64,000 nucleotides of DNA, from positions 7,392 through 71,391 of the forward strand of contig JAYPYG010000001.1 in the NCBI GenBank assembly GCA_038280095.1. The letters are read 5' to 3'. The notes beneath the pieces are model-generated. The model saw only the letters and a program-made list of their open reading frames with translations, was not told the DNA's origin and made no database searches. Positions 22,751 through 58,993 of the stretch are shown here, one piece after another. Both the position numbers and the translations under genes were made by a program. How positions within the stretch are numbered: position 1 is the stretch's first letter; every line of letters starts with the position of its first letter. The DNA is from Fidelibacterota bacterium (lineage in GTDB: Bacteria; Fidelibacterota; Marinisomatia; Marinisomatales; Marinisomataceae).

Positions 22751-22974
22751 TGAACAATCTTTCTCCAGAAGATAAAAACGCAATCGAAAATCTCATAATC
22801 CTAGCCCGCTACGTAGAAGACAACTCCATCTTCACAAAAGAGGATAGAGCAACAACAAGAAGGTCTATCGCCAGAGCAGAAAAGCTTATTGGAAGACAGG
22901 CGGGGCAGGATTCAGAAATGGATGCTGCGGCGCAAGAAGCGATAGAAATGGTGAAATCAAAATTCTCTTCTTGA
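22750..22974 (+). CDS. hypothetical protein (74 aa)
   Basis: I prefer ATG 22750 (TAATG overlap with the upstream stop) over the track start 22654. Confidence 0.4.
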   Translation: MNNLSPEDKNAIENLIILARYVEDNSIFTKEDRATTRRSIARAEKLIGRQAGQDSEMDAAAQEAIEMVKSKFSS

Positions 22975-22999
22975 CTTAAGTAAACATCCCTGCTATTAT
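22971..22999 (+). promoter_or_regulatory. sigma70-type promoter (TTGACT-17-TATTAT), leaderless geometry
   Basis: -35 at 22971-22976 and -10 at 22994-22999. ATG 23007 is 7 nt after the -10. Confidence 0.55.
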
Positions 23000-23006
23000 T
23001 ATTGGG

Positions 23007-23759
23007 ATGACACCATTATTCAAATCCCATTTTAGCATAGGGAAAAGCATTTTAGTCCTAAAATCCAATGGCGACGAAAAATCGTCCGATGGAATTTTTG
23101 ACATAGCAAAAGAAGCTGGGCTCAAAGATGTTGTTCTGGTAGAGGATAACATGACAAGCTTCCTCCAAGCAGCGAAAACCAGCAAAGAGTTTGGCGTAAA
23201 CCTAATCTACGGATTAAGGATTACAGTCTGCGATTCTTATTCAGAAGAAAGCTATGGAAAAGATTGCCACAAAGTAATTATTTTTGCGAAAAATGGCGAG
23301 GGATGCAAGAGGCTAAACAAAATCTACAGCGCCGCATTTTCCCAAGAACACAACTCAATAACCCTTTCGAAACTCAAGGAGCTATGGACAAAAGACGTGA
23401 AGCTTGCTATACCTTTCTATGACTCATTCATATACAATAACCTAATGGAGTTTTCTAGCTGCATCCCTAGGTTTGACTTCACAGAGCCCACGTTCTTTAT
23501 TGAAGATAATGAACTGCCATTCGACCAAATAATCAAAGAGAGTGTCGAAAAATATGTCAAGAAAAACAAGCATCAAGTAGAGAGAGTTAAAACAATCTAT
23601 TATAAAAACCGAAAAGATTTCGCCGCATACCAAACATTTAAGTGTGCAGCAAATCGCTCAGGGTGGGCAGGAAAAACAATCTCACTTCAAAAACCAAACT
23701 TAGAACACTGTGGCAGTAGCGAATTTTGCTTCGAAAGCTATTTAGCGGCAACCAAATAA
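23007..23759 (+). CDS. DNA polymerase III alpha N-terminal PHP-domain protein (separate gene)
   Basis: 250 aa. The N-terminus MTPLFKSHFSIGKSIL aligns with the DnaE F-x-H-L-H-x-H-S-x-Y-S-L start, but the His ligands are mostly replaced. It sits immediately upstream of the exonuclease and polymerase-core genes. Confidence 0.55.
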   Translation: MTPLFKSHFSIGKSILVLKSNGDEKSSDGIFDIAKEAGLKDVVLVEDNMTSFLQAAKTSKEFGVNLIYGLRITVCDSYSEESYGKDCHKVIIFAKNGEGCKRLNKIYSAAFSQEHNSITLSKLKELWTKDVKLAIPFYDSFIYNNLMEFSSCIPRFDFTEPTFFIEDNELPFDQIIKESVEKYVKKNKHQVERVKTIYYKNRKDFAAYQTFKCAANRSGWAGKTISLQKPNLEHCGSSEFCFESYLAATK

Positions 23760-23760
23760 A

Positions 23761-24402
23761 ATGCAAGAAGACTTACTAAGATTTAACTCCAATCAAATGT
23801 TTTGCATGTGGGATTATGAAACATGCCATCTAAACCTTAGGTCAGAAACCAATAGACCTTGGCAGTTAGCCTACATTGTCGCAGACCAAAAGAAAATCCA
23901 TTACAAGAAAGACCACTACCTTTGGTGGGATGATTTGGAAGTGTCTCCAGAGGCAGCACGAATCACAGGATTCAATCGGGCGGTGTACGAAAAGAGAGCT
24001 GAAGACCCGCGCAAAGTTCTCAAAGAATTCCGCAAAGTAATTCACGATAAAAGTGTTCGCCCAGCAGGGCACAACATCCTTGGTTTTGACGTTTACATTG
24101 AGGCGATACACGCAAGGGGGTCAAACATGCCCGTTGACCACTCCTACGTCGACAGACTAATCGACACAAACTGCTTAGAAAAAGCAATTGTGGAAGAAAT
24201 CCCATACAACAAAAACACAAGCTTTATAGGGTGGCAATATTCACTAGCCAACTTCAGAAAAAGAGGTCTAAAAACAAGCCTACAACAATGCGCAAAGAGG
24301 TATGGTATTGAATTTGACGCGAGCAAGCTTCACGACGCGCTTTACGACATAGGAATCAACCTTGAAGTCCTAAAAAAACAACTTTGGAAAATTGAAATAT
24401 GA
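23761..24402 (+). CDS. dnaQ: DEDDh 3'-5' exonuclease (DnaQ/epsilon-like)
   Basis: 213 aa. ExoI FCMWDYETCH, ExoII GHNILGFDVYI, ExoIII LHDALYDIG (H-x4-D). Confidence 0.8.
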   Translation: MQEDLLRFNSNQMFCMWDYETCHLNLRSETNRPWQLAYIVADQKKIHYKKDHYLWWDDLEVSPEAARITGFNRAVYEKRAEDPRKVLKEFRKVIHDKSVRPAGHNILGFDVYIEAIHARGSNMPVDHSYVDRLIDTNCLEKAIVEEIPYNKNTSFIGWQYSLANFRKRGLKTSLQQCAKRYGIEFDASKLHDALYDIGINLEVLKKQLWKIEI

Positions 24403-26966: not shown

Positions 26967-26971
26967 CATGC

Positions 26972-27000
26972 TTTACAAGCGGCAGTTCTTTTGATATAAT
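26972..27000 (+). promoter_or_regulatory. sigma70-type promoter (TTTACA-17-TATAAT) upstream of the Clp ATPase gene
   Basis: -35 at 26972-26977 and -10 at 26995-27000. ATG 27015 is 14 nt after the -10. Confidence 0.55.
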
Positions 27001-27014
27001 AATCAAAATCAAAT

Positions 27015-29480
27015 ATGAAGACTCAGCCGAATTTTACCCCACGAGCACAAGAATCAATACGAGAAGCGAGGTTAATAGCCTTAGAAAACAAGGAGTCCAA
27101 AATAACAATGGACCACTTGACTCTCGGCGTTGTTTCCATAGACAGTGTAAGTATCATAGAATTTTTTGATACCGCTGAAGTTGACCACGTAAAAGCGATT
27201 CAGTACATCACAAATAAAATAAAGCAAAACGGCGGCGATACACCCAAGCAACTCGAACCCGCAGAAGATTTTAAGCGCGTATTGCGAGCATCACACAACG
27301 CATCCATAAAAATGGAACATCCTTATGTTGGGGTGGAGCATATTCTCTTAGCTATATTTGAAGAAGGAGCAAATTCCTTGGTTCACTTTTTGGCGTCAGA
27401 AGGAGTCTCGATGAGAGACGCAAAAAGAATCGTTCAGTCTCGATTTTTAGTTGAAGACGCGGAAGAGGAGAGGTCAATTACAAAAACCCAAGAAAAGAAA
27501 GAGTCCCAAACCCAAGACCCATCCCAAAAGAGGAAGCAGAAAAAAGAAAAGTGTGCCACTTTTGAAAAATTCACCACCAACTTAAATAAGTTGGCGGAAG
27601 ACGGAAAGTTTGATAGTGTTATTGGTAGGAGTTCTGAAATAAAAGACGCGGCAGAGGTATTGTGCCGCCGAAATAAAAACAATCCAATTCTACTCGGAGA
27701 AGCGGGTGTCGGAAAAACCGCAATAGTTGAGGGGTTGGCACAAACAATCATTTTCAGCCAATGCACCAGCTTTCTAGAAAGCAAGACGATTTATGCAGTA
27801 GACCTTGCTGGAATGATTGCTGGAACAAAATACCGAGGTCAATTCGAAGAACGCTTAAAAAAAGTCATTGACGGGGCAGTCAATGACGATGATGCAATCC
27901 TCTTCATAGATGAGATTCATACTTTAATCGGGGCTGGTAGTGCGGAAGGCACTATGGACGCAGCAAACATACTCAAGCCACTTTTGGCGAGGGGCAAAGT
28001 TCGCTGTATAGGAGCCACAACAAGAAAAGAGTACAGGAAAACGATTTTAAAAGACGGAGCCTTAGACAGAAGATTCCAACCAATTATAGTAGAAGAACCG
28101 TCTGAAGAAGACTGCGTGAAAATTCTTAATGGAGTGAAAGCTAATTATGAAAAATTTCACAAAGTCGTTTATCCGCAAGCCGTAGTCAACGAGGCAGTAA
28201 AACTCTCCAGCAGATACATTACAGACAGATACCTTCCAGATAAAGCCATTGACTTGCTTGACCAAGCAGGCTCAAAAGCAAAAATTAGGGCATTTAGAAG
28301 ACCGCAAGAAGCCCTTGACATCGAAAAAGAGATAGAGCGACTTTATCTGTCCGAACAATGCTCAAGCGAACCTCACATTGTAATACGTAAAAAAGAGGAG
28401 CTTGTGAAAAAATACACAGCCATCATGGAGGCTTGGGCAAATGAATCCACATCACGAGCAACAGAGGTTCAAAAATCCGACATTCATAAAGTCTTAACTC
28501 AAAAAACAGGAATTCCCGTAAAAGACATTTCCCAGAGCGAGAAAGAGCGAATCCTTAACCTTGAGCCAAATTTAAACGAAGTAATCGTTGGGCAAGAAAA
28601 GGCAGTCGAGAAATTATGCAAAGCAATCCTGAGAAACAAGGCGGGACTAAACGATAGAAACAAACCCATAGGCTCATTTCTCTTTCTTGGCTCTAGCGGC
28701 GTAGGTAAAACATACCTCTCCCAACAACTCGCCCACTATATTTTCGGTGGCGAAAAAAATGTCATCAAGCTTGACATGTCAGAATATGGCGAAAAAGCCT
28801 CGACCGCGAAAATTACTGGAGCAGTTCCAGGTTATGTTGGGTACGAAGAGGGTAGCAGTATTATCGAGAGAATTAGAAAACAGCCTCACAGCGTCGTACT
28901 GTTCGACGAAATAGAGAAGGCTCACCCAGATGTACTGAATCTTTTACTCCAAATACTAGAAGATGGGCAAATAACAGACAGCTCAGGAAGAACCGCGAGC
29001 TTCAAAAGCTGCGTAATCATCATGACGAGCAACGTCGGTTCTCACCTCACAAAAAAAACCAACACAATGGGCTTTGGAGCATCAAACGACGACAACAACG
29101 AATCCGCTGTTCTTGAAGAAGCGGGAAAAGTTTTCAAGCCAGAGCTGTTGTCAAGAATCGAGTCAAAAGTCGTATTCAACAATTTAAAAGATGAGCAAAT
29201 CAGAAAAATCACAGAGCTTGAATGCGCCAAACTTGAGCGACGAGCAGAAGAAAAAGTGTCTTCAATCCACTTTGATGAAACACTGTATCAACACATATGC
29301 GACAAGCTTTCAAAAGAAAATAATGAATCAGGCGCACGACCTATTCGGACAATCATCAAAGAAGAAGTTGAGCAGCCCCTTGCGGAATCCCTCATCAACT
29401 GCGATTCACCATTTCAAGTCAAGGCAACAATTGCTTTTGATGGAGAGGTGCGCGTTACAATATACGAGGAAAGCGAATGA
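27015..29480 (+). CDS. ClpA/ClpC-type AAA+ unfoldase (Clp_N repeats + two AAA modules)
   Basis: 821 aa. Two Clp_N repeats (ITMDHLTLGVV and VGVEHILLAIFEE). D1 Walker A LLGEAGVGKTAIVEGLA, D2 FLFLGSSGVGKTYLSQQLA. A short coiled-coil linker. The loop TNTMGFGASND lies at the position of the ClpP-docking I/V-G-F/L tripeptide. Confidence 0.9.
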   Translation: MKTQPNFTPRAQESIREARLIALENKESKITMDHLTLGVVSIDSVSIIEFFDTAEVDHVKAIQYITNKIKQNGGDTPKQLEPAEDFKRVLRASHNASIKMEHPYVGVEHILLAIFEEGANSLVHFLASEGVSMRDAKRIVQSRFLVEDAEEERSITKTQEKKESQTQDPSQKRKQKKEKCATFEKFTTNLNKLAEDGKFDSVIGRSSEIKDAAEVLCRRNKNNPILLGEAGVGKTAIVEGLAQTIIFSQCTSFLESKTIYAVDLAGMIAGTKYRGQFEERLKKVIDGAVNDDDAILFIDEIHTLIGAGSAEGTMDAANILKPLLARGKVRCIGATTRKEYRKTILKDGALDRRFQPIIVEEPSEEDCVKILNGVKANYEKFHKVVYPQAVVNEAVKLSSRYITDRYLPDKAIDLLDQAGSKAKIRAFRRPQEALDIEKEIERLYLSEQCSSEPHIVIRKKEELVKKYTAIMEAWANESTSRATEVQKSDIHKVLTQKTGIPVKDISQSEKERILNLEPNLNEVIVGQEKAVEKLCKAILRNKAGLNDRNKPIGSFLFLGSSGVGKTYLSQQLAHYIFGGEKNVIKLDMSEYGEKASTAKITGAVPGYVGYEEGSSIIERIRKQPHSVVLFDEIEKAHPDVLNLLLQILEDGQITDSSGRTASFKSCVIIMTSNVGSHLTKKTNTMGFGASNDDNNESAVLEEAGKVFKPELLSRIESKVVFNNLKDEQIRKITELECAKLERRAEEKVSSIHFDETLYQHICDKLSKENNESGARPIRTIIKEEVEQPLAESLINCDSPFQVKATIAFDGEVRVTIYEESE

Positions 29481-29891: not shown

Positions 29892-29920
29892 TTGACAAAT
29901 AAACTCACTTTTGCTATCAT
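29892..29920 (+). promoter_or_regulatory. sigma70-type promoter (TTGACA-17-TATCAT), leaderless geometry
   Basis: -35 at 29892-29897 and -10 at 29915-29920. ATG 29927 is 6 nt after the -10. Confidence 0.6.
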
Positions 29921-29926
29921 AAGAAA

Positions 29927-30316
29927 ATGAGAAAATTACTGTTAATTCTCGCTCTCATTGTCGGTGCATTCTCCACCCAATCATACCACATTCCCATTGA
30001 GGACCACCAATGCACTGGACTCATAAGAGTCATGCAGGTAGAAAAAACCATAGAAGACAACATTCCTCGTTATTATGTAAGAACAAATTCAGGCTGGATG
30101 GAAATCCGCTCAGCCTCAAAAAGAATAGAAGAAGACATTTACCAAACTCTTTTAAAAAACAAAAACAGAGTATTTGGCGCACTGTTTGTGGCCCCAATGT
30201 ACTACGGATATGCGCTAGATAACGCCCACAGTATTTTTGATATAACTCAACAACCATACGAAGAAATCGACGAAAGACTCAACCCCCAAAACCCAAACAT
30301 AGACAAAGAACTATAA
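29927..30316 (+). CDS. secreted hypothetical protein (129 aa)
   Basis: N-terminal signal-peptide-like MRKLLLILALIVGAFSTQS. Confidence 0.5.
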   Translation: MRKLLLILALIVGAFSTQSYHIPIEDHQCTGLIRVMQVEKTIEDNIPRYYVRTNSGWMEIRSASKRIEEDIYQTLLKNKNRVFGALFVAPMYYGYALDNAHSIFDITQQPYEEIDERLNPQNPNIDKEL

Positions 30317-30750: not shown

Positions 30751-30752
30751 CT

Positions 30753-32306
30753 ATGTCTCTTTGGTACGAATGCGGAAACGGCTCAGTAAGAGTCACATCA
30801 GGATGGGCCTACAAAAAGCATCCTCTAGATTTTTACATATGCTGCACAGGTCCTTCTTTGAGAGAAGTCTCAAACTCGGACTTTAAGCATCCAGGCATTT
30901 TTACGATAGGAATCAACACATCCTACCCATACATAAAACCAGACCTATGGATAGGCATGGACAAACCAGAGTGTTACGATTCAAAATTATGGTGGGAGCC
31001 ATTTAGGAAAATTTGCAGAGGCCCTTATATAAATACGCGCTTCCACGGCTATGAGCTAAAATCTATGCCAAACACCTTTTTTGCAGACGTGAAAAAGCCA
31101 GAAAAAGATGTGGAAATTTTTGAAAGAAGGGGTCATGATATTGATTTTATTTGGAGAAAAAACACTTTAGTCGTTGCTCTTCACACTGCGATATGGATGG
31201 GTGCGCAGAGAATTCATCTAGTTGGTTGTGACCTCGGCGGACCAAGGGATTATTACGATAATAGAGTTTTGACAGAAGAGCAAAAAGCACACAACAAAAA
31301 ACTGTACGACTCTCAAGTTATCTGGCTAAAGTGGTTTTATCAAGCAGCAAAAAAACGCAGGATAGAAGTAATATCCTGCTCGGAGCAGGCTCCAATAAAC
31401 GATATAGTTACTTACAAGAATATTCATGAGAGCTTAATTGAGTCTCGAAGAAGAGTTCCTCAAATAAACTCTGAAATAGTTCACGCTATTGATGCCAATA
31501 AGAAGCCAAAAAAAGAACAGCCTAAAGCGGAACCGAAAAAGCTGGCAAGCAAAAAAGCAGAAGTGGAAGTTTTAAACCCGAATGATAAGCTTAGAGTATT
31601 CGTTGGAGCATCAGAACAAGAGGGTGTTCCTACGAAAGTCTTAGAATCCTCTATAAAAAGGCGCGCAACAATTCCTGTTGGAGTTTACTCCCTTGGCGAG
31701 GTTATGGAAAAGAAAGGAATTAAAGTTCCCACGCCAAAAGACCCACAAAACAGACCTAAGACAAATTTTTCATTTCACCGCTGGTGCATACCTGAAATTT
31801 GCGACTATAAAGGAAAGGCAGTTTACTGTGATTCAGACCAAATCGTCTTAGAGGATGTAGCAGAACTACTTAAATTTTTCGACAAATATCCAGACAAAAG
31901 CGTATTAGTAATGTCAGATAAAAAGGATTATATCGAAACATCAGTGATGCTAGTAGACTGCGAAAAAGTAAATTGGGACATACGTAAGATTGTCCAAAAT
32001 TTAGATGACGGAAGCCTTAACTACAAATCCTTAATGTTTAAAATGGGGCTAGAGAGCAAAGGCGACTACATCATCGGCGCAGGTCCAGAATGGAATAGCC
32101 TTGACGAATTTGAAGAGGGCAAAACCAAACTCCTTCACTATACAAATAGAGGAACTCAACCATACAAAGGAGGCAAGAGTCCACTAACGCACCTTTGGAT
32201 GAATGAATTGTGCGCAGCCCTCAACATAGGATACGTATCCAAAGACGAAGTTGCGGGTGCTGTTAAAAATAGGTGGATTTCTACGAACTGCCTTCAAGCG
32301 AAATGA
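30753..32306 (+). CDS. two-domain glycosyltransferase: CstII/DUF115 (MAF)-like domain + GT8-like domain
   Basis: 517 aa. The N-domain FYICCTGPSLREVSNSDFKHPGIFTIGINTSY and NTLVVALHTAIWMGAQRIHLVGCDLGG parallel the CstII/DUF115 motifs (x-G-N-G-P-S-L ... and ... G-x-x-x-I-x-L-x-G-x-D). The C-domain has FSFHRWCIPEI...AVYCDSDQIVLEDVAELLKF, a GT8 DXD region. Confidence 0.5.
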   Translation: MSLWYECGNGSVRVTSGWAYKKHPLDFYICCTGPSLREVSNSDFKHPGIFTIGINTSYPYIKPDLWIGMDKPECYDSKLWWEPFRKICRGPYINTRFHGYELKSMPNTFFADVKKPEKDVEIFERRGHDIDFIWRKNTLVVALHTAIWMGAQRIHLVGCDLGGPRDYYDNRVLTEEQKAHNKKLYDSQVIWLKWFYQAAKKRRIEVISCSEQAPINDIVTYKNIHESLIESRRRVPQINSEIVHAIDANKKPKKEQPKAEPKKLASKKAEVEVLNPNDKLRVFVGASEQEGVPTKVLESSIKRRATIPVGVYSLGEVMEKKGIKVPTPKDPQNRPKTNFSFHRWCIPEICDYKGKAVYCDSDQIVLEDVAELLKFFDKYPDKSVLVMSDKKDYIETSVMLVDCEKVNWDIRKIVQNLDDGSLNYKSLMFKMGLESKGDYIIGAGPEWNSLDEFEEGKTKLLHYTNRGTQPYKGGKSPLTHLWMNELCAALNIGYVSKDEVAGAVKNRWISTNCLQAK

Positions 32307-33139
32307 AAATAGGGATTTTTGAATCAACACTTTCCTCCAAGGAGCACGTACGCCCAATCCACTCCCTTGCGGGAGGTATGCGAAAACTAAACCTAGAATT
32401 CTTTTTTAGCAAAGAATATAAGCCGTGTGACATAGCTGTTTCTTGGGGGGTTTACAAAAAAATAAAAAAAGAGACGAAGGTAAGGAATGAAATAAAGTTA
32501 AGGCAATTATCGAGAGGCAGAAGAACCCTAGTAGTGGAAAGGGGCTACCTCAAAAGAGATTCCTATTTTTCCATAGGATTTGATTCTCAAAATGGCTGGG
32601 CAGACTTTAACAACAAAACTTGCCCCATTGACAGATGGAGCAAACTTGGAATAAAGTTAAAACCAAAAATAAGCAAAGGCGAGAACGTCTTGTTTTGCGG
32701 ACAGGTTCCTTGGGACACGGCAGTTCAAGATATAGATTATATACAGTGGTGTAAGGATATAGTAAAATCTATAAGAGAAGTTACCGACAGGAACATAATT
32801 TTTCGCCCACACCCTCTTGGGCCAGACATGTCCAAACACATCAAAGAAACAAGGCGAGTTAAAATGTCAACGAACAAAAACATTTTAGAGGATTTTAAAG
32901 AGACTTGGTGTGCGGTAGCATACAACTCAAACGCTTTAGTCGAAGCAGCAATAGAAGGAATCCCTGTTTTCGCTTTTAATAATGGAGCGATGACATGGGA
33001 GATTGCAAACAAAAACATTACAAACATAGAGAACCCAAAACTTCCGCCAAGACAACAATGGGCCGCAAACCTAGCATACACTCAATGGACCCTTGATGAG
33101 ATGAAGGAAGGACTACCATTGAAACACTTACTATCATGA
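32303..33139 (+). CDS. putative capsule-type (KpsS/KpsC-like) glycosyltransferase
   Basis: 278 aa from ATG 32303 (ATGA overlap). ENVLFCGQVPWDTAVQ...NIIFRPHP resembles the Capsule_synth pattern (L-Q-V-x-x-D-S ... K-x-H-P). Weak evidence. Confidence 0.3.
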   Translation: MKIGIFESTLSSKEHVRPIHSLAGGMRKLNLEFFFSKEYKPCDIAVSWGVYKKIKKETKVRNEIKLRQLSRGRRTLVVERGYLKRDSYFSIGFDSQNGWADFNNKTCPIDRWSKLGIKLKPKISKGENVLFCGQVPWDTAVQDIDYIQWCKDIVKSIREVTDRNIIFRPHPLGPDMSKHIKETRRVKMSTNKNILEDFKETWCAVAYNSNALVEAAIEGIPVFAFNNGAMTWEIANKNITNIENPKLPPRQQWAANLAYTQWTLDEMKEGLPLKHLLS

Positions 33140-33921
33140 AAATATTCTCAACATTCAACGACAAAATATACCATTCTTCAGGAAGGGATTTAATCTTTTC
33201 GCTAAAAGGCGCGGGGATGATAGATTCATTTATCGGGTACTATGAATTTTCCGACAAAGAGAATGTTAAAACATTACTTAAACTCGCCCCAAACTCAAGA
33301 AATCTAAACTCCTCTATTTGTGGCGAAATAATAACAAATATTTTTAATAAAAATAAACATATCATCCCACAAAAACACGGAGGCACAGCACCTCAGGAAA
33401 TTTGCGACGACTTCTGGAATAGAAGATGGTTTAGCTGGTTTAAAAAAATAGCAATGGCGTACGACGCCCTATGGAGGGAAGATGCAGATGCTGGAGAAAT
33501 TTATCTTTTCCTAGACTCAGATATTCGAGTAATAAAGCCATTCAATCAGTTACAATTAAAAAAACTCATGAATGGCGCAGATATAGGCATACTAAAAGGC
33601 AATCGAGAGGCAGTTGAGGCAGGAGTAATTGCAGTAGACGCGAGAATGCTTATGGCCAGCAATTTTTATGAAAAGCTCCTTAGGTTATTCAGCTCAGGAG
33701 CGTTTCAAAATATGAAGAGGTGGGATGACGGATATGTTTTTGCAAAACTCATGAAAGGTGAGGGGCTTTGCAAATTTCACGATTTCGCAAAAGAAAAGAA
33801 ACAAAAAAAATTCACAAACTCAAATGGCCACGAAACAAACAACCAAATCTTGCCGTTCTCAGAGTTGGGCGAGTTTTTTGAGCACGACAAAGGAAAGCAC
33901 GTCAGAGAGTCAATAATATGA
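33136..33921 (+). CDS. hypothetical protein, possible DXD nucleotide-sugar transferase
   Basis: 261 aa. GEIYLFLDSDIRVIKPF is a DXD-like motif. Confidence 0.3.
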   Translation: MKIFSTFNDKIYHSSGRDLIFSLKGAGMIDSFIGYYEFSDKENVKTLLKLAPNSRNLNSSICGEIITNIFNKNKHIIPQKHGGTAPQEICDDFWNRRWFSWFKKIAMAYDALWREDADAGEIYLFLDSDIRVIKPFNQLQLKKLMNGADIGILKGNREAVEAGVIAVDARMLMASNFYEKLLRLFSSGAFQNMKRWDDGYVFAKLMKGEGLCKFHDFAKEKKQKKFTNSNGHETNNQILPFSELGEFFEHDKGKHVRESII

Positions 33922-34664
33922 TGAGCAACACAAAAAAGACAAAGATAGCGCTACTTCAATGCGGGTTTATCAGAGACATGAGTCACATGTCTAGAATGAG
34001 GAGTTTCATCCATAACAATAGCGAATTCGAAATAGATGTTTACTTGCAGACATATAATATAATAGGGGTTGATGAAAAATTCGTAAGGAACAGAGGGGGA
34101 TACTTGAGTTCCGACAGGACAGACATAGAAGAAATAAACAGAATCTGCCCCATAAAAAACTTTCAAATCTTAGACCCGATTGCGACAGAAAAGAAGGCGA
34201 AAGCAAGAAATCCAACCCTCATTAACGCTATTTGCCAATTCCAAAATGTATTTGACGCGATGCAAATGATAGACACCAAGCAATACGATGGAGTTATTAG
34301 GTCAAGGCCCGATTACTTCATTAAACATATGCGTCTCAAAAATTATGATGTAGAAAAAATATTAACATCAAATTTACTTTTAGCTAAACTTAAATCTGGA
34401 AAAATTCTTAAAAAAGCGGAGGGTCACTTAAAGCAAAGATGTCTTAATTTCCTTCTCTACGACGGGTTCGCACTTGGAGGTGTAAGAAATATGGAAAAAT
34501 ACTGCGACTTTATTAATCAAGAGGTTTTTTCTCTCAAAAGGAATGGTATTTTTGCAGAGTTAGAATTAACAAATTATATAAGCAATAACCTAAAGCTAGA
34601 CGTTTGCAACATCAACGACAAAGACCTCCTAGAGCCCTGCATATGGAGAAAGCTACAAGGTTAA
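33918..34664 (+). CDS. hypothetical protein (248 aa), paralog-family member
   Basis: Shares an N-terminal strand (KIALLQCGFIRD) and QYDGVIRSRPDY with 9967-10800. Confidence 0.4.
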   Translation: MMSNTKKTKIALLQCGFIRDMSHMSRMRSFIHNNSEFEIDVYLQTYNIIGVDEKFVRNRGGYLSSDRTDIEEINRICPIKNFQILDPIATEKKAKARNPTLINAICQFQNVFDAMQMIDTKQYDGVIRSRPDYFIKHMRLKNYDVEKILTSNLLLAKLKSGKILKKAEGHLKQRCLNFLLYDGFALGGVRNMEKYCDFINQEVFSLKRNGIFAELELTNYISNNLKLDVCNINDKDLLEPCIWRKLQG

Positions 34665-34791
34665 AACAGACCATTAATCAAAAAAAAATTAGAGCGTTTG
34701 AAGCCTCAAAAATGCGGGGGCTAGGCACACCAGAAGACTTAAATCACTACTTAGTAAATCACAAAAGCATCAACAAATAAATCATAACAAC

Positions 34792-35334
34792 ATGATAAAC
34801 GTAGATAGAAAATTCATCTTACTCTTGCCACAAAAAACTGGCTCAACGTCAATCACACACCTAATGAAAGAGCAGGGCGTCAAAGACGAAATGGGTTCAA
34901 AACATCACACGTTAGGAGAATGTATTAAAAACTGGAAAGATGAATGGGGAGATATTGACGAATATCTTATCGCTTCAACCTTGCGAAATTGCTACGACAA
35001 AGTCGCATCGACATGGGAATCAAAAAAAGGCAAAATAATAGCGAAAAGTTTTACCAACTACTGCCTTAAAACCCACAAGCCATCCCTAGCTTCAAAAATC
35101 GTTTTTTTTGGCCAATACTCACCCCAAGCATACATTAATTTCGAAACACTGCAAGACGACTTTCGAGCATTTTGCAACATGGTTGACATTAAAAAAAGTG
35201 ACATTCCCAAAAAGAATATGGCAAAAAACCGAGAGCACTACTCCAAATATTATTCAAATGAATCAAAGAAATGTGTTGAAAAAATGTACAAAGATGATAT
35301 ACTCATTTTCAACTTTAAATTCGAAAACCAATGA
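34792..35334 (+). CDS. sulfotransferase-like protein
   Basis: 180 aa. FILLLPQKTGSTSITHLM matches the P-x-K-T-G-S-T PAPS-binding loop. Confidence 0.45.
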   Translation: MINVDRKFILLLPQKTGSTSITHLMKEQGVKDEMGSKHHTLGECIKNWKDEWGDIDEYLIASTLRNCYDKVASTWESKKGKIIAKSFTNYCLKTHKPSLASKIVFFGQYSPQAYINFETLQDDFRAFCNMVDIKKSDIPKKNMAKNREHYSKYYSNESKKCVEKMYKDDILIFNFKFENQ

Positions 35335-35882
35335 GATTACCAAAACACCTAGGCGGCCACTTAAATAAAACGCACATAGACAATGGCGCACTACATTATC
35401 TTAAAGACAAGCTTTTAATCAAAAGCATGTTGGACGTGGGCTGTGGGCCAGGAGGAATGGTTTACAGAGCAAGAGAAATAGGGATAGATTCCTTTGGAAT
35501 AGATGGGGATTTTACCACCATACCGAAGGACTCATTTTTTTCTGTTCACGATTATCAAGACGGCCCCTCTGATTTAAGGGAAGCAACATTTGACTTGGTT
35601 TGGAGTTGCGAATTTGTAGAGCACGTTTTCGAAGAGTATATCCCCAATTATGTGGCTGATTTTCTCAGAGGGAAGTATTTGCTAATGACACATAGCGAGT
35701 CACCTAACGGCTATCATCACGTCAACATCAAAAACGAAGGGTATTGGATTGATAAAATGAAGTCTTTTGGTTTCGAGCTTGACGAACAAAGAACTAAAGA
35801 GGTCAGAGCCGCCTCAACAATGAAAAAAAAGTTTGTGCAAAAAACAGGGTTGCTTTTTAAAAACGCAAATAGGGACACATGA
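35331..35882 (+). CDS. class I SAM-dependent methyltransferase
   Basis: 183 aa. Motif I MLDVGCGPGGMV, followed by an acidic strand (FGIDGD) and DLVWSCEFVEHV. Confidence 0.75.
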   Translation: MRLPKHLGGHLNKTHIDNGALHYLKDKLLIKSMLDVGCGPGGMVYRAREIGIDSFGIDGDFTTIPKDSFFSVHDYQDGPSDLREATFDLVWSCEFVEHVFEEYIPNYVADFLRGKYLLMTHSESPNGYHHVNIKNEGYWIDKMKSFGFELDEQRTKEVRAASTMKKKFVQKTGLLFKNANRDT

Positions 35883-36366: not shown

Positions 36367-36395
36367 TTGACAGTGTTGAGAAAATCGTGTACTAT
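36367..36395 (+). promoter_or_regulatory. consensus sigma70-type promoter of the tmRNA gene (TTGACA-17-TACTAT)
   Basis: -35 at 36367-36372 and -10 at 36390-36395. The mature tmRNA 5' end (36421) is 26 nt downstream, which implies RNase P-type 5' processing. Confidence 0.65.
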
Positions 36396-36420
36396 ACACA
36401 CAGTTCTTTTATATTTAAAC

Positions 36421-36819
36421 GGGGGTGTTATGGATTCGACTTAATACCTGACGACATTTACCGCAAGTCGGAGAGTGCTTGGCTCCGTTATCAAGGCACA
36501 CACGCACAAATGGCAAAACCAAAAGTGTTAAGAAGTTCAACTTCCGCAGCCGCGTCATTGGCGCTCGCCGCGTAAGCCGCAGCTTCGCTCTGGCAGCTTA
36601 AGCTGTCACCTCTCAGCGATTGACGCAGATAGAGCGTTCGAGGGGTCATCCATCTGCAAAGGTAGAAAAAGTTTTTTCGTGGCACAAACTATCTTAAACA
36701 AATAAATGAAACGAAAAGCTAGGAGTCTATACCAAAGCTCAAAATAAGAATAGACTAAACTTGTAGAAGTAATTGATTGATGATTTAAGGACGTGGCTTC
36801 GATGCCACCACCTCCACCA
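36421..36819 (+). ncRNA. ssrA: tmRNA (transfer-messenger RNA, one-piece)
   Basis: - 5' GGGGGTGTTATGGATTCGAC and 3' GGACGTGGCTTCGATGCCACCACCTCCACCA are the hallmark tRNA-like ends.
- The 7-bp acceptor stem GGGGGTG/CACCTCC has a G3:U pair (the Ala identity element), and CCA is encoded.
- The internal tag frame GCA AAA CCA ... GCG TAA (36513-36575) encodes AKPKVLRSSTSAAASLALAA*.
- As I read it, the T-loop is TTCGAT (6 nt), one nt shorter than canonical. Confidence 0.9.
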
Positions 36820-36826: not shown

Positions 36827-36854
36827 TTGCCAACTCCACCAAATTGTATATAAT
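36827..36854 (+). promoter_or_regulatory. sigma70-type promoter (TTGCCA-16-TATAAT), leaderless geometry
   Basis: -35 at 36827-36832 and -10 at 36849-36854. ATG 36861 is 6 nt after the -10. Confidence 0.5.
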
Positions 36855-36860
36855 ATATCC

Positions 36861-36953
36861 ATGATACTAGATGAAAAGAAAATCAACGGAAGAAAAAATA
36901 TTCTGCTAAGATGCGCCCACTCTGGCGAAAAGTTCTTTGACCAAATAACATGA
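36861..36953 (+). CDS. short ORF (30 aa) translationally coupled to the HNH gene
   Basis: Encodes MILDEKKINGRKNILLRCAHSGEKFFDQIT. Its stop overlaps the HNH start (ATGA at 36950-36953). It is too short for the supplied ORF track. Confidence 0.25.
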   Translation: MILDEKKINGRKNILLRCAHSGEKFFDQIT

Positions 36954-37877: not shown

Positions 37878-37907
37878 TTGACAAGGGTTCACCTCTTAGT
37901 ATATAAT
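37878..37907 (+). promoter_or_regulatory. sigma70-type promoter (TTGACA-18-TATAAT)
   Basis: -35 at 37878-37883 and -10 at 37902-37907, inside an AT-rich divergent region and 125 nt upstream of ATG 38032. Confidence 0.45.
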
Positions 37908-38031
37908 ACACGAAATTTAAAAAACTTAAAATAAAAATATCAATTTCAGCAAAATACACCATTGAAATGATAGAGAAATTTACGAAAAGACATACGACTG
38001 TATCGACCAATAACAAAACAAAAAACCACTA

Positions 38032-38658
38032 ATGACAAAATACTTAAAAATCCCGAAAGATAAGGTGGATAAGCTTTATTTTTCATCAGACTTTCACGGA
38101 TACCACTCGGCAATCTGTGAAGGGACAACTCGGTGGGAAAGATTCAAAGGTGACACAGTTCGACCATTTCCCGACCCAGAAACCATGACTGCCAAATTAA
38201 TTGACAATGTCAACAAAGTAGTCCCAGAAGACGGAATTCTATTCCATCTCGGAGACTGGTGCTGGGGAGGTTCAGAGAATGCGCGGAAGCTCAGAAACGC
38301 CCTCCACGTTAGAACAATTTATGCAGTCCAAGGAAATCATGATGATTTTTCTTGGGAGTTTGCAAACGAATTATTTGACGCATATCACTCAATGTACGAG
38401 CTGACGGTCAAGGGGCCAAAAGTACGCAGAGTCACACTTTGCCACTATGCGATGAGGGCTTGGAACTGCTCACATTACGGAGCATATCATTTATTTGGGC
38501 ATACTCACGCCATGACTCCACCATTAGGCAAATCAATGGATGTGGGCATCGACGCAAATAAAAACTTTCGCCCATTTTCGTGGCAAGAAATTGAAAACAT
38601 TTTATCAAATCGCGAAGCACACGATACAATCACAAAAGGAACAAGATACATATATTAA
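38032..38658 (+). CDS. calcineurin-like metallophosphoesterase
   Basis: 208 aa. Motifs SSDFHGYH (D-x-H), HLGDW (G-D), QGNHD (G-N-H-D/E) and FGHTH (G-H-x-H). Confidence 0.8.
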   Translation: MTKYLKIPKDKVDKLYFSSDFHGYHSAICEGTTRWERFKGDTVRPFPDPETMTAKLIDNVNKVVPEDGILFHLGDWCWGGSENARKLRNALHVRTIYAVQGNHDDFSWEFANELFDAYHSMYELTVKGPKVRRVTLCHYAMRAWNCSHYGAYHLFGHTHAMTPPLGKSMDVGIDANKNFRPFSWQEIENILSNREAHDTITKGTRYIY

Positions 38659-39559: not shown

Positions 39560-39566
39560 TCTCTCC

Positions 39567-43080: not shown

Positions 43081-43527
43081 CTAATTAGATTGTGAAGTTT
43101 TCGGGTTTTGTGGTGGCTGAATCGCAAAAGACTTTAAATCCTGCAACAATTGAGCCACGTTTTTAAGTTCTGCGTGCATTGAGCCAATTTCAATGCGTAT
43201 TTCTGTCCCTAATTCTGTTTGTCTTTGAAGGTCTTCTTTCATAGTGTTCATAGTTTTTTCATTTGTTGTGATGCGCTCTTTTAACAAATCTATGTCCGAC
43301 TTGTTCGCTAGGTATTTCTTAGATTCTTCTATTTTTTCTAATCGCCCTGTAAGAGAGTTAATTTTTCCTTCAATCTCCTCGATAATTTTCTTACGAGATT
43401 CTTCTCCGTCTATAAGCTTCTTCGTCTTATACCTAGTGATAAGGGCGGAACCAATGATACCACCAAGAGCTATAGCACTTAAAATCAAAGCCAATACATC
43501 TTTTGCTAGTTTTATTTCGTCGCCCAT
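43081..43527 (-). CDS. N-terminally membrane-anchored coiled-coil protein
   Basis: 148 aa. TM helix VLALILSAIALGGIIGSALI followed by heptad-rich E/K/L sequence. It has one of the few AGGAG motifs in the window, 14 nt upstream of its ATG. Confidence 0.5.
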   Translation of the reverse strand: MGDEIKLAKDVLALILSAIALGGIIGSALITRYKTKKLIDGEESRKKIIEEIEGKINSLTGRLEKIEESKKYLANKSDIDLLKERITTNEKTMNTMKEDLQRQTELGTEIRIEIGSMHAELKNVAQLLQDLKSFAIQPPQNPKTSQSN

Positions 43528-43581
43528 TGTTAAAATCCCTACTCCTTAGTACACTGAAAGACAATTTATTTTTGGTTTTTC

Positions 43582-43610
43582 TTGCAAGTTGTACGAAAAT
43601 TTGCTAATTT
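43582..43610 (+). promoter_or_regulatory. sigma70-type promoter (TTGCAA-17-TAATTT), leaderless geometry
   Basis: -35 at 43582-43587 and -10 at 43605-43610. ATG 43619 is 8 nt after the -10. Confidence 0.45.
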
Positions 43611-43618
43611 TGTCACAA

Positions 43619-43861
43619 ATGAAAGCCCCTGAAATCAAAAACATTCATTTCCCTAACAGGAGAAGCCTTCAAACATCTCGCAAGAGGAAAGCTGAGGTAG
43701 GTGACACTGTCCGAATTGGAGTTCAGGGCATAGAGTTTGAGGGTTGCGAGGGGTTTGTTGTTTCTCGAAATGGGGCTTATTACTACATTCGCCCAAAATA
43801 CTACAAACATCAAATTGAACTTTTCCGTCATGAATTTACTCTTTTACGAAAGAAAGCTTGA
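43619..43861 (+). CDS. hypothetical protein (80 aa from ATG 43619)
   Basis: The track ORF starts at TTG 43589, inside the promoter. I prefer ATG 43619. Confidence 0.4.
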   Translation: MKAPEIKNIHFPNRRSLQTSRKRKAEVGDTVRIGVQGIEFEGCEGFVVSRNGAYYYIRPKYYKHQIELFRHEFTLLRKKA

Positions 43862-49119: not shown

Positions 49120-49149
49120 TTGACAATTACATAGGCTTTGCTGTACAAT
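49120..49149 (+). promoter_or_regulatory. sigma70-type promoter (TTGACA-18-TACAAT)
   Basis: -35 at 49120-49125 and -10 at 49144-49149, 76 nt upstream of the GTG 49226 start. Confidence 0.45.
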
Positions 49150-49225
49150 GGGAAGACTTAAAAAAATAAAACAAATAATACCATACACCATTCATCTACG
49201 GAGCTATAGAAAAGGTTAAAAGCAA

Positions 49226-50385: not shown

Positions 50386-50415
50386 TTGACAGAAATCACT
50401 GTAATATAGTAAAAT
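50386..50415 (+). promoter_or_regulatory. sigma70-type promoter (TTGACA-18-TAAAAT), leaderless geometry
   Basis: -35 at 50386-50391 and -10 at 50410-50415. ATG 50423 is 7 nt after the -10. Confidence 0.5.
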
Positions 50416-50422
50416 AAAAATC

Positions 50423-50593
50423 ATGAATAACAGAGTATCAAAAAAATTACGCAAAATCTTTAATCCGTCGAAAGACAACCCTCGAAGTGTTCGAGCGTAT
50501 CGCATAGCAAAGCGACAATACAACTCAATGGAAATTGGCGAACGCACCAAATTTCTCTCATCCCTCAACACAATCCAAAACTCAGCACGATAA
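50423..50593 (+). CDS. small basic hypothetical protein (56 aa)
   Basis: Encodes MNNRVSKKLRKIFNPSKDNPRSVRAYRIAKRQYNS... Not in the supplied track (<60 aa). It sits exactly at the leaderless distance from the promoter. Confidence 0.3.
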   Translation: MNNRVSKKLRKIFNPSKDNPRSVRAYRIAKRQYNSMEIGERTKFLSSLNTIQNSAR

Positions 50594-51623: not shown

Positions 51624-51652
51624 TTGACTTTTCTTACTGTATAAGAAATAAT
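51624..51652 (+). promoter_or_regulatory. sigma70-type promoter (TTGACT-17-AATAAT)
   Basis: -35 at 51624-51629 and -10 at 51647-51652. ATG 51664 is 11 nt after the -10. Confidence 0.4.
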
Positions 51653-51663
51653 ATCCTCATTTA

Positions 51664-52041
51664 ATGAATGTAAAGGTTAAAAAAGAAACCCTTGGAGCAA
51701 AACTCCCAGAACGCAATAAAGATGGAGTGTGTTTCAATCTCTTTGCAAGAAGCTCGGCTTGGTCACCCTCCGACTTAATTGGCAAATATACGGAATACAG
51801 GACGGGAGTGTCCTTTAAAGTACCAAAAGGATATGTGGGAGTAGTGATTCCTCACGACGAAATACACAGGACTCATCACTTTCTTAGAAACTCACTTACA
51901 GTCATCGACCATACGAACAACAAAGAAGTCTCTCTCAGGTTTGCTCCAGACCCATCAAGAATGGCTTACAAGGTTGGAGATGTAATAGCGAAAATATTTT
52001 TCGTAAAAGCAGCGCCAGTTGAATTAGAAGAAATCAAATAA
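51664..52041 (+). CDS. dUTPase-fold protein with degenerate catalytic motifs
   Basis: 125 aa. It aligns by eye to trimeric Dut (LPERNKDGVCFNLFAR vs L-P-x-x-x-x-x-x-S-A-G-x-D-L; TVIDHTNNKEV vs G-x-I-D-x-x-Y-x-G-E; VGDVIAKIFFV vs G-x-R-I-A-Q). It lacks the P-R-S motif, the Tyr, and the C-terminal Gly-rich motif V. Confidence 0.45.
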   Translation: MNVKVKKETLGAKLPERNKDGVCFNLFARSSAWSPSDLIGKYTEYRTGVSFKVPKGYVGVVIPHDEIHRTHHFLRNSLTVIDHTNNKEVSLRFAPDPSRMAYKVGDVIAKIFFVKAAPVELEEIK

Positions 52042-53305: not shown

Positions 53306-53309
53306 CATT

Positions 53310-55743: not shown

Positions 55744-55882
55744 TTTAACTGAATCCACGCTAACTGAACTCAAGAAAACACTCATTACTACAGACGGGAA
55801 AGGCAAGCGGGCTAAGGAAGCTGCTCTTATGGAAATCGTAAGGCGGGTTGTCGAAACCGCAGATGGCCGCAAAATTAATTGA
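55718..55882 (+). CDS. small hypothetical protein (54 aa)
   Basis: Encodes MNQIPKPFNLTESTLTELKKTLITTDGKGKRAKEAALMEIVRRVVETADGRKIN. I prefer it to the 123-aa antisense ORF 55519-55890. Confidence 0.25.
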   Translation: MNQIPKPFNLTESTLTELKKTLITTDGKGKRAKEAALMEIVRRVVETADGRKIN

Positions 55883-55907
55883 CAAACCACAATTAATACA
55901 ATAGTCT
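55879..55907 (+). promoter_or_regulatory. sigma70-type promoter (TTGACA-17-TAGTCT), leaderless geometry
   Basis: -35 at 55879-55884 and -10 at 55902-55907. ATG 55914 is 6 nt after the -10 (spacer ACAACC, identical to the one at 58475-58480). Confidence 0.5.
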
Positions 55908-55913
55908 ACAACC

Positions 55914-56216
55914 ATGAACTACCCAAAAGAACTGTTCAAAGTTACCAAAAAAGGTAAACTTCACAAATTCACATTCAAGCACGAGTTTGACCCTGTAAAC
56001 AAAGACTCAGCCTACAGCAACTTTTTTTATTACGAAAACAAAGAGTGCAACCTTGTGACACTGAATGTAGTCACAGACATTGGAAAAACATATTTTCTTA
56101 CCGCCGAAGAAGCAAGGGACGATAGGCTCCGCAAAAACGAGGTAGAAATAAAAGACCTGAAAGACAGAATAAAAAAACTTGAAAACTCTATTGCCGAAAT
56201 AAAGAAACTGCCATGA
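55914..56216 (+). CDS. hypothetical protein (100 aa)
   Basis: ORF with a C-terminal coiled-coil-like segment (EIKDLKDRIKKLENSIAEIKKL). Confidence 0.45.
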   Translation: MNYPKELFKVTKKGKLHKFTFKHEFDPVNKDSAYSNFFYYENKECNLVTLNVVTDIGKTYFLTAEEARDDRLRKNEVEIKDLKDRIKKLENSIAEIKKLP

Positions 56217-57828: not shown

Positions 57829-58068
57829 ATGAATATTATCAGATTAATTGTTCGCCGCCTTACAAGATGGGCGTGGGATGAAGTAAAAAACCCAAGCAAC
57901 GACAAAAAAGTTCTTAAATTTCTCGACAAATATTGTATGGGGTTCAAGGTCAAGAACGAAGCAGGTCAATATCGAGCGTACTATCGTTGCGACAACGGCA
58001 TATACGATGCAGTATTAACAGTAATAGAAGAAGACAGTGAATATCTTAAGGTTAAGAAAGAGGTATAG
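57829..58068 (+). CDS. hypothetical protein (79 aa)
   Basis: ORF in the + strand array. Confidence 0.4.
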   Translation: MNIIRLIVRRLTRWAWDEVKNPSNDKKVLKFLDKYCMGFKVKNEAGQYRAYYRCDNGIYDAVLTVIEEDSEYLKVKKEV

Positions 58069-58393
58069 AGTCAAAGAAGAAAATGGCCGCTTTTACCCAG
58101 AATTCAGAACATTTTTTATTTGGCACAGGTTCAAGTGGATTCATAAACTTGAATCATATACCATCTCATTCGACAACAATAAACATGCCGCGCATTTCGT
58201 CAACATGTGCAGAAGCGAGGGTCACGCAAAACACATAAAATGGATATATGAAATTCGCGAACAACTTGAAACAGCTTTTAAAATAGCAAATGAAAACAAC
58301 GACGAAAAACCCAAAACGATTAGCGAACAACTTGATTCTATTTTCCTAAAACTACTAAAAGTTAAAACCTTTAACGGAATGTTTTGCAAATGA
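58037..58393 (+). CDS. hypothetical protein (about 118 aa; GTG start uncertain)
   Basis: ORF overlapping the previous gene by 32 nt. No in-frame ATG lies near the 5' end. Confidence 0.35.
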   Translation: MNILRLRKRYRVKEENGRFYPEFRTFFIWHRFKWIHKLESYTISFDNNKHAAHFVNMCRSEGHAKHIKWIYEIREQLETAFKIANENNDEKPKTISEQLDSIFLKLLKVKTFNGMFCK

Positions 58394-58445
58394 GCGTAGA
58401 ATGGAAAAGAAACGTCGAAGTAATCGACGAAATTTGGAAACACGC

Positions 58446-58474
58446 TTGACAACATTGCGGCATTCTGCAATAAT
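58446..58474 (+). promoter_or_regulatory. sigma70-type promoter (TTGACA-17-AATAAT), leaderless geometry
   Basis: -35 at 58446-58451 and -10 at 58469-58474. ATG 58481 is 6 nt after the -10. Confidence 0.5.
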
Positions 58475-58480
58475 ACAACC

Positions 58481-58993
58481 ATGATAAACGAAATCAAAGG
58501 AAATTTACTAAACTTCCCCGCTGACATTAATGTCGCGGCTCATTCAGCTAATTGTCAAAACACAATGGGTTCTGGCATAGCTCTACAAGTAAGGCAACGC
58601 TTCCCAAAAGCTTGGGAGGCGGATTGCCGAGCCGCAGAAGTAGGGGGCAATAGATTGGGAAATATTTCACACGCTTTCATTTCCCCAAAAGGCACTCTCG
58701 CTAAAGGCGCGAAGGCTATTTTCAATCTTTACACTCAAGATGGGTTTGGCGCAAATGGTCGATTCGTCAACTACGAAGCCTTTTATGTTGCCCTTGAAAA
58801 AATGGTTGAGAAACTTAAGAGCTATGAAGATATGTCTAACGGAGAATGGATTCCCCACGTCGGCGTACCAAGGTACATTTCTGCGGATAGAGCGGGAGGC
58901 TCATGGAATGTCATCAAAGCAATGCTTATAGATGTGTTTGCAAAAAACGAACTAAGCTTGACAATTGTCGAGTTTGACCCCAATCAAGCTTAA
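58481..58993 (+). CDS. macro-domain protein (ADP-ribose binding/hydrolase fold)
   Basis: 170 aa. IKGNLLNFPADINVAAHSANCQNTMGSGIALQVRQRFP and YISADRAGGSWNVIKAML match the macro-domain N-x-x-x-x-G-x-G-I-A and I-G-x-G-x-A-G-G blocks. Confidence 0.75.
   Translation: MINEIKGNLLNFPADINVAAHSANCQNTMGSGIALQVRQRFPKAWEADCRAAEVGGNRLGNISHAFISPKGTLAKGAKAIFNLYTQDGFGANGRFVNYEAFYVALEKMVEKLKSYEDMSNGEWIPHVGVPRYISADRAGGSWNVIKAMLIDVFAKNELSLTIVEFDPNQA

Follow-up and report, generated by a model that had tools for sequence, protein, structure and literature searches.

The window analysed here is a 64-kb stretch of DNA with a GC content of 40% (contig JAYPYG010000001.1, positions 7,392 to 71,391 of the forward strand). 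It belongs to a large tailed phage, marine and uncultured, and covers genes of replication and nucleotide metabolism. A promoter of the primary-sigma (sigma-70) type recurs in this region, so close to the first start codon of its transcription unit that, judged from the sequence, the replication and nucleotide-metabolism operons are probably expressed from leaderless mRNAs. Nearly every gene of the window is on the + strand, which has a strong excess of A over T, and the genes are tightly packed. Megablast finds no close relative among cultured phages, and tblastn with DnaE and DnaB gives identities of about 33% at most, the best DnaE identity to any cultured phage being about 33%.

The first-pass annotation of this DNA listed nine intergenic regions with the arrangement TTGACA-N17-TAnnnT followed closely by a start codon. 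All nine combinations of -35 hexamer, -10 hexamer and start codon are present where it placed them, with spacers of 16-18 nucleotides (nt) and gaps of 6-8 nt, the gap being the number of nt between the end of the -10 hexamer and the start codon. The start codon is ATG at eight of the nine sites and TTG at the remaining one, 12829. The sites 12794, 43582 and 58446 deviate from the pattern in start codon or promoter, and 36827 and 50386 in the shortness of the first open reading frame. At 22971-23009 (+), the element is TTGACT-N17-(TGc)TATTAT, with a gap of 7 to the ATG of a 250-residue PHP-domain protein. The PHP gene, at 23007, is the first cistron of the PHP/exonuclease/DnaE operon, and the -35 hexamer at 22971 is overlapped by the upstream open reading frame (ORF) 22654-22974. 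The site at 29892-29929 (+), TTGACA-N17-(TGc)TATCAT with a gap of 6, agrees with the consensus at 11 of 12 positions and has the TG in addition. It serves a 129-residue protein with a hydrophobic N-terminal stretch, no homologue of which is found in the flanks of the related loci described below. The element at 39531-39569 (+), TTGACA-N17-TAACAT with a gap of 7, precedes the ATG of a 368-residue T4 Rnl1-like RNA ligase.

Two of the sites serve very short ORFs. At 36827-36953 (+), TTGCCA-N16-TATAAT with a gap of 6 precedes a 30-residue ORF (36861-36953), whose stop codon shares an ATGA with the start codon of the HNH/NUMOD4 endonuclease gene (36950). At 50386-50425 (+), TTGACA-N18-TAAAAT with a gap of 7 precedes a basic 56-residue ORF (50423-50593), and the next gene begins at ATG 50598, 4 nt past the stop codon. 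The sites at 55879-55916 (+; TTGACA-N17-TAGTCT, ATG of a 100-residue ORF) and 58446-58483 (+; TTGACA-N17-(TGc)AATAAT, ATG of a 170-residue protein with a weak macro-domain match) both have the gap of 6 nt ACAACC, and the common ACAACC-ATGA that had been pointed out for them is real. The element at 43582-43621 (+), TTGCAA-N17-(TGc)TAATTT with a gap of 8 to the ATG of an 80-residue ORF, is a weak candidate, agreeing with the consensus at 7-8 of 12 positions and falling outside the set that matches at 9 or more. The weakest of the nine is the site at 12794-12831 (+), TTGACT-N17-TAAACT with a gap of 6 to the TTG of a 107-residue ORF, because its start is not ATG; a leaderless TTG start is doubtful, given that the peak described below is made by ATG only. 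In relatives, the family of the 12829 gene (MTSKKL...IIERLV...) has an ATG start at a gap of 6-8 in seven loci. With 12794 and 43582 set aside as doubtful, most of the listed sites would, with good probability, give mRNAs that start at the AUG or within 2 nt of it.

The short distance between the -10 hexamer and the ATG is clearly enriched when the window is compared with 300 dinucleotide shuffles of itself. In this control, a match was scored when at least 10, or at least 11, of the 12 consensus positions of the -35 and -10 hexamers agreed. Seven strong + strand sites have an ATG at a gap of 6-7, compared with 0.43±0.63 (maximum 3) in the shuffles. For sites with at least 11 matching positions, the corresponding numbers are 4 and 0.02. 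Sites matching at 10 or more positions are distributed unevenly, with 30 on the + and 9 on the - strand. Weak promoter-like matches as a whole are in slight excess over the shuffles (49 versus 38; 48 versus 34). The signal resides in the strong matches and in the fixed distance to the ATG, not in the weak matches.

The same geometry is found in relatives of this phage. DnaE matches more than 160 stretches in IMG/VR, and 80 of these loci (L002-L081), with DnaE identities of 50-69%, were fetched with flanks of ±10 kb. The gap histogram of the 80 relatives has a peak at 6, 7 and 8 nt (78, 43 and 29 cases, respectively) over a background of about 5. In an unbiased k-mer comparison of the intergenic and coding DNA of the lineage, TTGACA is the top enriched hexamer (8.8-fold), and the next ATG downstream of TTGAC[AT] is 35-36 nt away in 64 of the 166 cases, 140 of which fall within 33-48 nt. 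Orthologues of the PHP gene, which have 37-59% protein identity to the window copy, were collected by tblastn protein homology alone to avoid circularity. A -35/-10 pair with an ATG at a gap of 5-9 is present in 67 of the 75 loci, and in 60 of these the gap is 6-7. Among 42 distinct PHP promoters with a 17-nt spacer, pairwise identity averages 0.88 for the -35 hexamer, 0.75 for the -10 hexamer and 0.42 for the spacer. The two hexamers thus appear to be under purifying selection as a composite element, while the spacer drifts.

At least ten gene families show this geometry, including those of nrdB, dnaB and the 12829 gene. The nrdB of the relatives lies on the opposite strand and has a leaderless-type promoter of its own (gap 6) in about 28 loci, whereas the nrdB of the window just follows nrdA. 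The protein in question, of 337 residues and encoded on the - strand in about 28 loci, is one that we take to be NrdB from reading its sequence by eye rather than from a tool. In the window, nrdB (21027-22238) sits right after nrdA on the same strand; its longest ORF, with a start at 21027, overlaps nrdA, and the true start is probably ATG 21168. Since the geometry stands before different genes in different genomes, it is a recurring arrangement and not a single inherited locus.

As queries for relatives, the RNA ligase, macro-domain protein and RecA were of no use. A search with NAMPT brought in unrelated phages, and 28 such NAMPT-carrying loci were used as a control set. The gap-6 total of this set is 10, nearly all of it from one locus (L097), which indicates that the peak is not made by the method itself. 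The exceptional locus (L097:3493-21060; IMGVR_UViG_3300012942_000036, 111.5 kb, GC 54%) has 12 units of the form TTGACA-N17/18-TAnnnT-6-8 nt-ATG in 21.5 kb. It has no enrichment of Shine-Dalgarno (SD) motifs, and its sole database match is one of 47 nt to Arthrobacter jumbo phages. This locus, from an unrelated phage, displays the design even more densely.

Several features that are expected of leaderless mRNAs accompany the register. In the lineage, the peak at gaps of 6, 7 and 8 is made by ATG (77/43/28) and is not seen for GTG (0/4/3), TTG (4/0/5) or CTG (1/1/2). In 118 of 148 cases (80%), the ATG has a C or a T immediately in front of it. RNA polymerase prefers to start 7-9 nt after the -10 hexamer, at a purine with a preceding pyrimidine (Y(-1)R(+1)), and leaderless translation requires a 5′ AUG; the ATG-only peak and the pyrimidine at -1 fit this preference and this need. 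The pooled logo consists of a T-rich stretch 5′ of the -35 hexamer, cTTGACa, a 17-nt spacer, a TGn extended -10 and TAnAAT. The 5′ ends are also little structured: the mean folding energy of the first 36 nt is -1.0 kcal/mol for the nine window candidates, -2.0 for other gene starts and -3.6 for random coding windows (Mann-Whitney p=0.0012 for the nine candidates versus the random coding windows).

SD cores are not enriched in the window, where they are present in 13 of 85 upstream regions, at the background level of 14%, while the same detector finds them in 62-81% of cases in three control phages. Among 88 intergenic regions with TTGACA in the leaderless register, a single one has an SD-like element. 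Upstream of all window genes the sequence is rich in A and poor in G, and A has maxima at -6 (0.64), -3 (0.52) and -1 (0.51), a pattern that resembles the Kozak-like one of Bacteroidota. Bacteroidota-type promoters (TTTG / TAnnTTTG at about -7), which were considered in view of the absent SD and the A-rich upstream regions, are ruled out; in 484 intergenic regions, TAnnTTTG occurs 15 times and has no preferred position. Adjacent + strand genes are closely joined, with 41 of 82 pairs overlapping, 19 of them in an ATGA and 7 in one base only, and another 13 separated by 0-10 nt. Counts of intrinsic terminators in the window are not clearly above those of shuffles, and none that is convincing lies upstream of the promoters. 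In several relatives, among them L011 and L013-L015 with cgggcggctttttt, a terminator is located directly 5′ of the PHP promoter.

The promoter class also has members with short and with long leaders. Three promoters, at 3655, 26972 and 51624, had been described as leaving leaders of 9-14 nt. They exist, with gaps of 9, 14 and 11 nt, respectively, and their leaders are about 3-8 nt instead. At 3655-3695 (+), TTGACT-N17-CATTAT with a gap of 9 precedes the ATG of a family-2 glycosyltransferase, leaving a leader of about 3 nt. At 51624-51666 (+), TTGACT-N17-AATAAT with a gap of 11 precedes the ATG of a 125-residue ORF (leader about 5 nt), and at 26972-27017 (+), TTTACA-N17-(TGa)TATAAT with a gap of 14 precedes that of a ClpB-like AAA+ protein (leader about 8 nt). 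The site at 26972 is not conserved: in front of the ClpB-like gene, the relatives lack a TTGACA promoter and carry a GTGTAA motif instead. A fourth site, absent from the first-pass annotation, is that of dnaB (14973-15014, +), where TTGACT-N18-(TGc)TAGTAT with a gap of 9 to ATG 15012 gives a very short leader; in the DnaB family, gaps of 6-10 are found in 19 loci, the window included.

Long leaders are found at nrdA (18796-18889, +; TTGCCA-N17-(TGg)TAGAAT), where the leader is 65 nt, at 49120-49225 (+; TTGACA-N18-TACAAT), where it is about 76 nt, and at 37878-38031 (+), where a perfect TTGACA-N18-TATAAT is followed by a leader of 124 nt. As read from the sequence, this last leader holds a 21-codon ORF (37967-38035, +) that ends in TAATG and so overlaps the ATG of a 208-residue gene at 38032. 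Together with the 30-residue ORF at 36861, the 21-codon ORF before 38032 suggests that mini-ORFs may act as ribosome-loading devices. A promoter of the same type, TTGACA-N17-TACTAT (36367-36395), stands before a non-coding gene without an ATG register, that of the transfer-messenger RNA (tmRNA), the unit spanning 36367-36819 (+) and the promoter lying 25 nt upstream of the mature 5′ end of the tmRNA gene (36421-36819). The tmRNA of the window is of the one-piece kind (Rfam, 132 bits) and its predicted tag is unusually long, with 29 residues (GKTKSVKKFNFRSRVIGARRVSRSFALAA). The HNH/NUMOD4 homing endonuclease unit directly follows it. In none of the 80 related loci does a tmRNA lie in the ±10 kb around DnaE.

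The 25 + strand intergenic regions longer than 40 nt were inspected for this promoter class. Eight or nine have a TTGACA-type promoter in the leaderless register, four have one with a leader of about 3-8 nt, four have a long leader or a non-coding product (nrdA, tmRNA, 37878 and 49120) and about eight have no clear promoter of this type. Leaderless first cistrons, which had been called systematic, are so within the TTGACA class, where the 8-9 leaderless units and the four with very short leaders are found among about 17 promoters. The term does not extend to all units, since nrdA, tmRNA and two others have long leaders and a second class, marked by GTGTA, has leaders that carry SD.

GTGTA is the top enriched intergenic pentamer in the relatives (8.3-fold). 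It occurs in two registers, either 14-15 nt before the ATG or 27-35 nt before it, the latter with an AAGG/AGGT SD-like element in the leader. When GTGTA lies 22-45 nt before an ATG and TTGACA is absent, 49 of 66 leaders have AAGG, AGGT or GGAG 8-9 nt before the ATG; in the remaining intergenic regions, the SD-like element is present in 46 of 279. A typical case, seen in about 30 loci, consists of a terminator, an AT-rich stretch, tataGTGTAta, AAGGaaAAGGTa and the ATG of a Lys-rich protein of about 140 residues. In the window, a GTGTA unit is located at 43525-43558 (-), with GTGTA (43554-43550) 27 nt 5′ of ATG 43527 and a leader that contains the SD-like AAGGAG. A virion structural protein (41549-43066) is encoded by the second gene of the 43527(-) operon. 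Other GTGTA sites are at 37907-37911 (-) and at 14667, 18873 and 57816 (+) in the window, and around 16 kb (-) in relatives L003-L054. In relatives, two genes served by GTGTA have matches to a PHROG family that carries the annotation minor tail protein. GTGTA is probably a second, phage-specific promoter class that serves structural genes.

A candidate reader of the GTGTA class is a 199-residue sigma-like protein encoded at 1965-2567 (-). It matches Sigma70_r4 with E=0.008, which is below the Pfam cut-off, PHROG sigma-factor families with E about 1e-4 and region 2 of WhiG with E=0.001. Its gene lies in a - strand block with those of SSB (1565-1975) and a deoxynucleoside monophosphate (dNMP) kinase (2554-3168). 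To judge from the SD-like leaders of GTGTA units, host ribosomes appear able to use SD. The phage may, rather tentatively, have two translation regimes, one of leaderless, SD-free TTGACA units for replication and metabolism and the other of GTGTA structural units with SD-like leaders; a division of labour between the promoter classes is plausible but unproven. If there are two such regimes, they would mean a programmed switch of initiation mode in infection, possibly tied to the phage tmRNA and RNA-repair genes, and some tiny leaderless ORFs would be coupled by ATGA or TAATG to a real gene.

The mechanism that best accounts for the TTGACA class would begin with strong promoters of the primary-sigma type, composed of a T-rich stretch, cTTGACa, a spacer of 17±1 nt, TGn and TAnAAT, at the start of many units. 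The A of the first ATG is placed 7-9 nt after the -10 hexamer, where RNA polymerase usually starts, and this A would be the transcription start. The transcript would then begin with AUG, or with at most 1-2 extra bases, and would have no SD. A ribosome carrying initiator tRNA would bind the 5′-terminal AUG directly in the manner of the leaderless route, and initiation would, by analogy, be of the 70S type. For downstream cistrons, which have no SD and mostly overlap or abut the previous stop codon, the probable mode of translation is termination-reinitiation or else A-rich initiation independent of SD. The full set of primary-sigma elements and the presence of the same promoter type at tmRNA fit the host holoenzyme, which is presumably what reads these promoters. 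The register, its conservation, the specificity for ATG, the lack of SD and the unstructured 5′ ends, which are all the predictions of leaderless expression that can be tested at the sequence level, agree with what is found.

Some points weigh against leaderless expression. Since the relatives share phylogeny, the raw counts of the gap histogram and of the distances overstate the number of independent events. One listed site has a TTG start, one has a weak promoter and two of the first ORFs are very short (30 and 56 residues). The window encodes a sigma-like protein of its own, and the lack of terminators 5′ of its promoters implies that the same ATGs are probably also translated from read-through polycistronic RNA. 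That AT-rich intergenic DNA could give such matches by chance is a negligible possibility, even though the total of weak sigma-70-like matches is only modestly above that of the shuffles: the shuffle tests on the window, the strand asymmetry (30 + versus 9 -), the conservation of the geometry across relatives and the lack of a peak at gaps of 6-8 in 26 of the 28 loci from unrelated phages all speak against it. Genome compaction offers an unlikely explanation, in which the promoters are real, their closeness to the ATG is mainly a by-product, most protein is made from read-through RNA by the SD-independent internal initiation that serves the other genes, and leaderless transcripts add little. 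It agrees with the lack of terminators just mentioned, with the overlap of ORF 22654-22974 and the -35 hexamer at 22971, and with the 54 of 82 adjacent + strand pairs that overlap or are at most 10 nt apart; moreover, since the genes are all without SD, internal SD-less initiation clearly works here. However, compaction predicts neither the sharp register of 6-7 nt nor the exclusive use of ATG, the pyrimidine at -1 or the unstructured 5′ ends, and in the relatives with a terminator before the PHP promoter (L011, L013-L015) the ATG would be served by the leaderless transcript alone.

The mRNAs would still be leaderless if TTGACA-N17-TAnAAT were read by a phage-encoded or phage-modified sigma factor in place of the unmodified host primary sigma. 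The 199-residue sigma-like protein could be such a factor. The extended -10 is read by sigma region 3.0 and the upstream stretch by the alpha C-terminal domain of the group-1 sigma holoenzyme. The TGn extended -10 and the T-rich upstream stretch imply a full-length group-1 sigma, whereas 199 residues fit regions 2 and 4 only. The genes served, those of replication and nucleotide metabolism, are typical early targets of host RNA polymerase, and the separate GTGTA class is a better candidate for a phage factor, which makes this variant quite improbable. It is very improbable that the start codons have been mis-assigned and that the true starts lie downstream on mRNAs with leaders. The starts are predicted, as the first ATG of each ORF, and the two short first ORFs (30 and 56 residues) and the TTG start could be taken in that sense; but the PHP protein is conserved from residue 4-5 on (FKSHFSIGKSIL), its ATG is aligned in 67 of 75 loci, an ATG-specific peak at a fixed register is unexpected for a codon that is not used, and the alternative downstream starts offer no SD motif.

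Leaderless expression from promoters next to the start codon has precedents in cells and phages. The published in-silico signature of bacterial leaderless genes, which are frequent in Actinobacteria and Deinococcus-Thermus, is a TAnnnT about 12 nt before the start codon (PMC3160421), and the -10 hexamers of the window, with their first T about 12-14 nt 5′ of the start codon, match it. In Deinococcus, the ORF-adjacent -10 has been shown to be the promoter of leaderless mRNAs, and it is strengthened by a -35 added at 17 bp (PMC12340547). The cellular promoters of Deinococcus-Thermus and Actinobacteria are mostly without a recognisable -35 (PMC12340547), whereas here the -35 is the best conserved part (0.88) and TG is common. 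In the Thermus thermophilus phage phiYS40, most middle and late transcripts have no leader and the balance of IF2 and IF3 is shifted (IF2 up, IF3 down) (PMC3594737). Its likeness to the window phage is that of a large lytic phage whose transcripts of one entire temporal class have no leader and are nevertheless translated by host ribosomes (PMC3594737). The two phages differ in that the middle and late classes are leaderless in phiYS40, whereas in the window phage it would be the replication, nucleotide and RNA-repair genes, with full -35/-10 promoters; the structural operon 43527(-) has GTGTA and an AAGGAG leader, and the two translation regimes, if real, would be the mirror image of phiYS40. 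The leaderless promoters of phiYS40 reportedly have a -10 or an extended -10 only.

The SigA-like leaderless promoters of actinobacteriophages (PL1, PR2 and PL2 of Cluster O mycobacteriophages) are an already known arrangement of this kind. The window phage belongs to another lineage, has 40% GC, comes from marine metagenomes and has neither a cultured relative nor a sign of an actinobacterial host. In lambda, the cI mRNA likewise starts at the A of the AUG, from the sigma-70 promoter PRM. It is the leaderless product of a single regulatory gene with a weak, activator-dependent promoter, in a host and a phage that use SD, whereas in the window phage the design appears to extend over the genome, with strong promoters and without use of SD. 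Leaderless phage operons (phiYS40, actinobacteriophages) and leaderless Deinococcus genes are thus already known, and what differs here is the lineage, the habitat, the conserved -35 and extended -10, the absence of SD and the class of genes.

The arrangement provides a concrete plan of gene expression for an abundant marine phage lineage that has no cultured member and to which more than 160 contigs in IMG/VR belong by DnaE match. In annotation, an ATG 6-8 nt after a -10 hexamer could be taken as the start codon, and the promoters would map the early operons by marking those that are open to unmodified host polymerase. The histogram of promoter-to-ATG distances, which revealed the same design in L097, can serve as a search signature for metagenomes, and the elements could be used as small, strong cassettes for expression without a ribosome-binding site. 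The range of hosts would narrow to bacteria in which canonical -35/-10 promoters are read and leaderless, SD-free mRNAs are translated efficiently, which argues against one with Bacteroidota-type promoters. The only hint as to the host comes from a 23.7-kb contig with 60% DnaE identity (L112, PBIO01000033.1, which is the same contig as L062), binned in the Tara Oceans metagenome-assembled genome Halobacteriovorax sp. SP2999. This binning may be an artefact and is too weak for a host assignment.

The identifiable genes of the window are the following. A RecA-like protein (start 13152) is followed by DnaB (15012, assigned by tblastn), a PD-(D/E)XK nuclease (17671) and a ribonucleotide reductase (18890 and 21168, on reading of the sequence). 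The PHP-domain protein (23007) is a gene separate from that of DnaE (24399), with an RNase T-type exonuclease (23761) between them, and the ClpB-like AAA+ protein starts at 27015. The tmRNA (36421-36819, +) and the HNH homing endonuclease (HNH/NUMOD4; 36950) come next, together with two RNA ligases (39567 and 59831), a kinase fusion (46728) and PhoH (53310). The virion structural protein (41549-43066) is on the - strand. Glycosyl- and sulfotransferases are found at several sites. Sugar-modifying and related enzymes form long runs, two by our count, at 483-1565 (-), 3693-12740 (+) and 30753-35882 (+), which hold the family-2 glycosyltransferase, two Sulfotransfer_2 proteins, a nucleotidyltransferase-HAD fusion, a methyltransferase and many unannotated proteins. 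The number of sugar-modifying enzymes is unusually high for the replication region of a phage.

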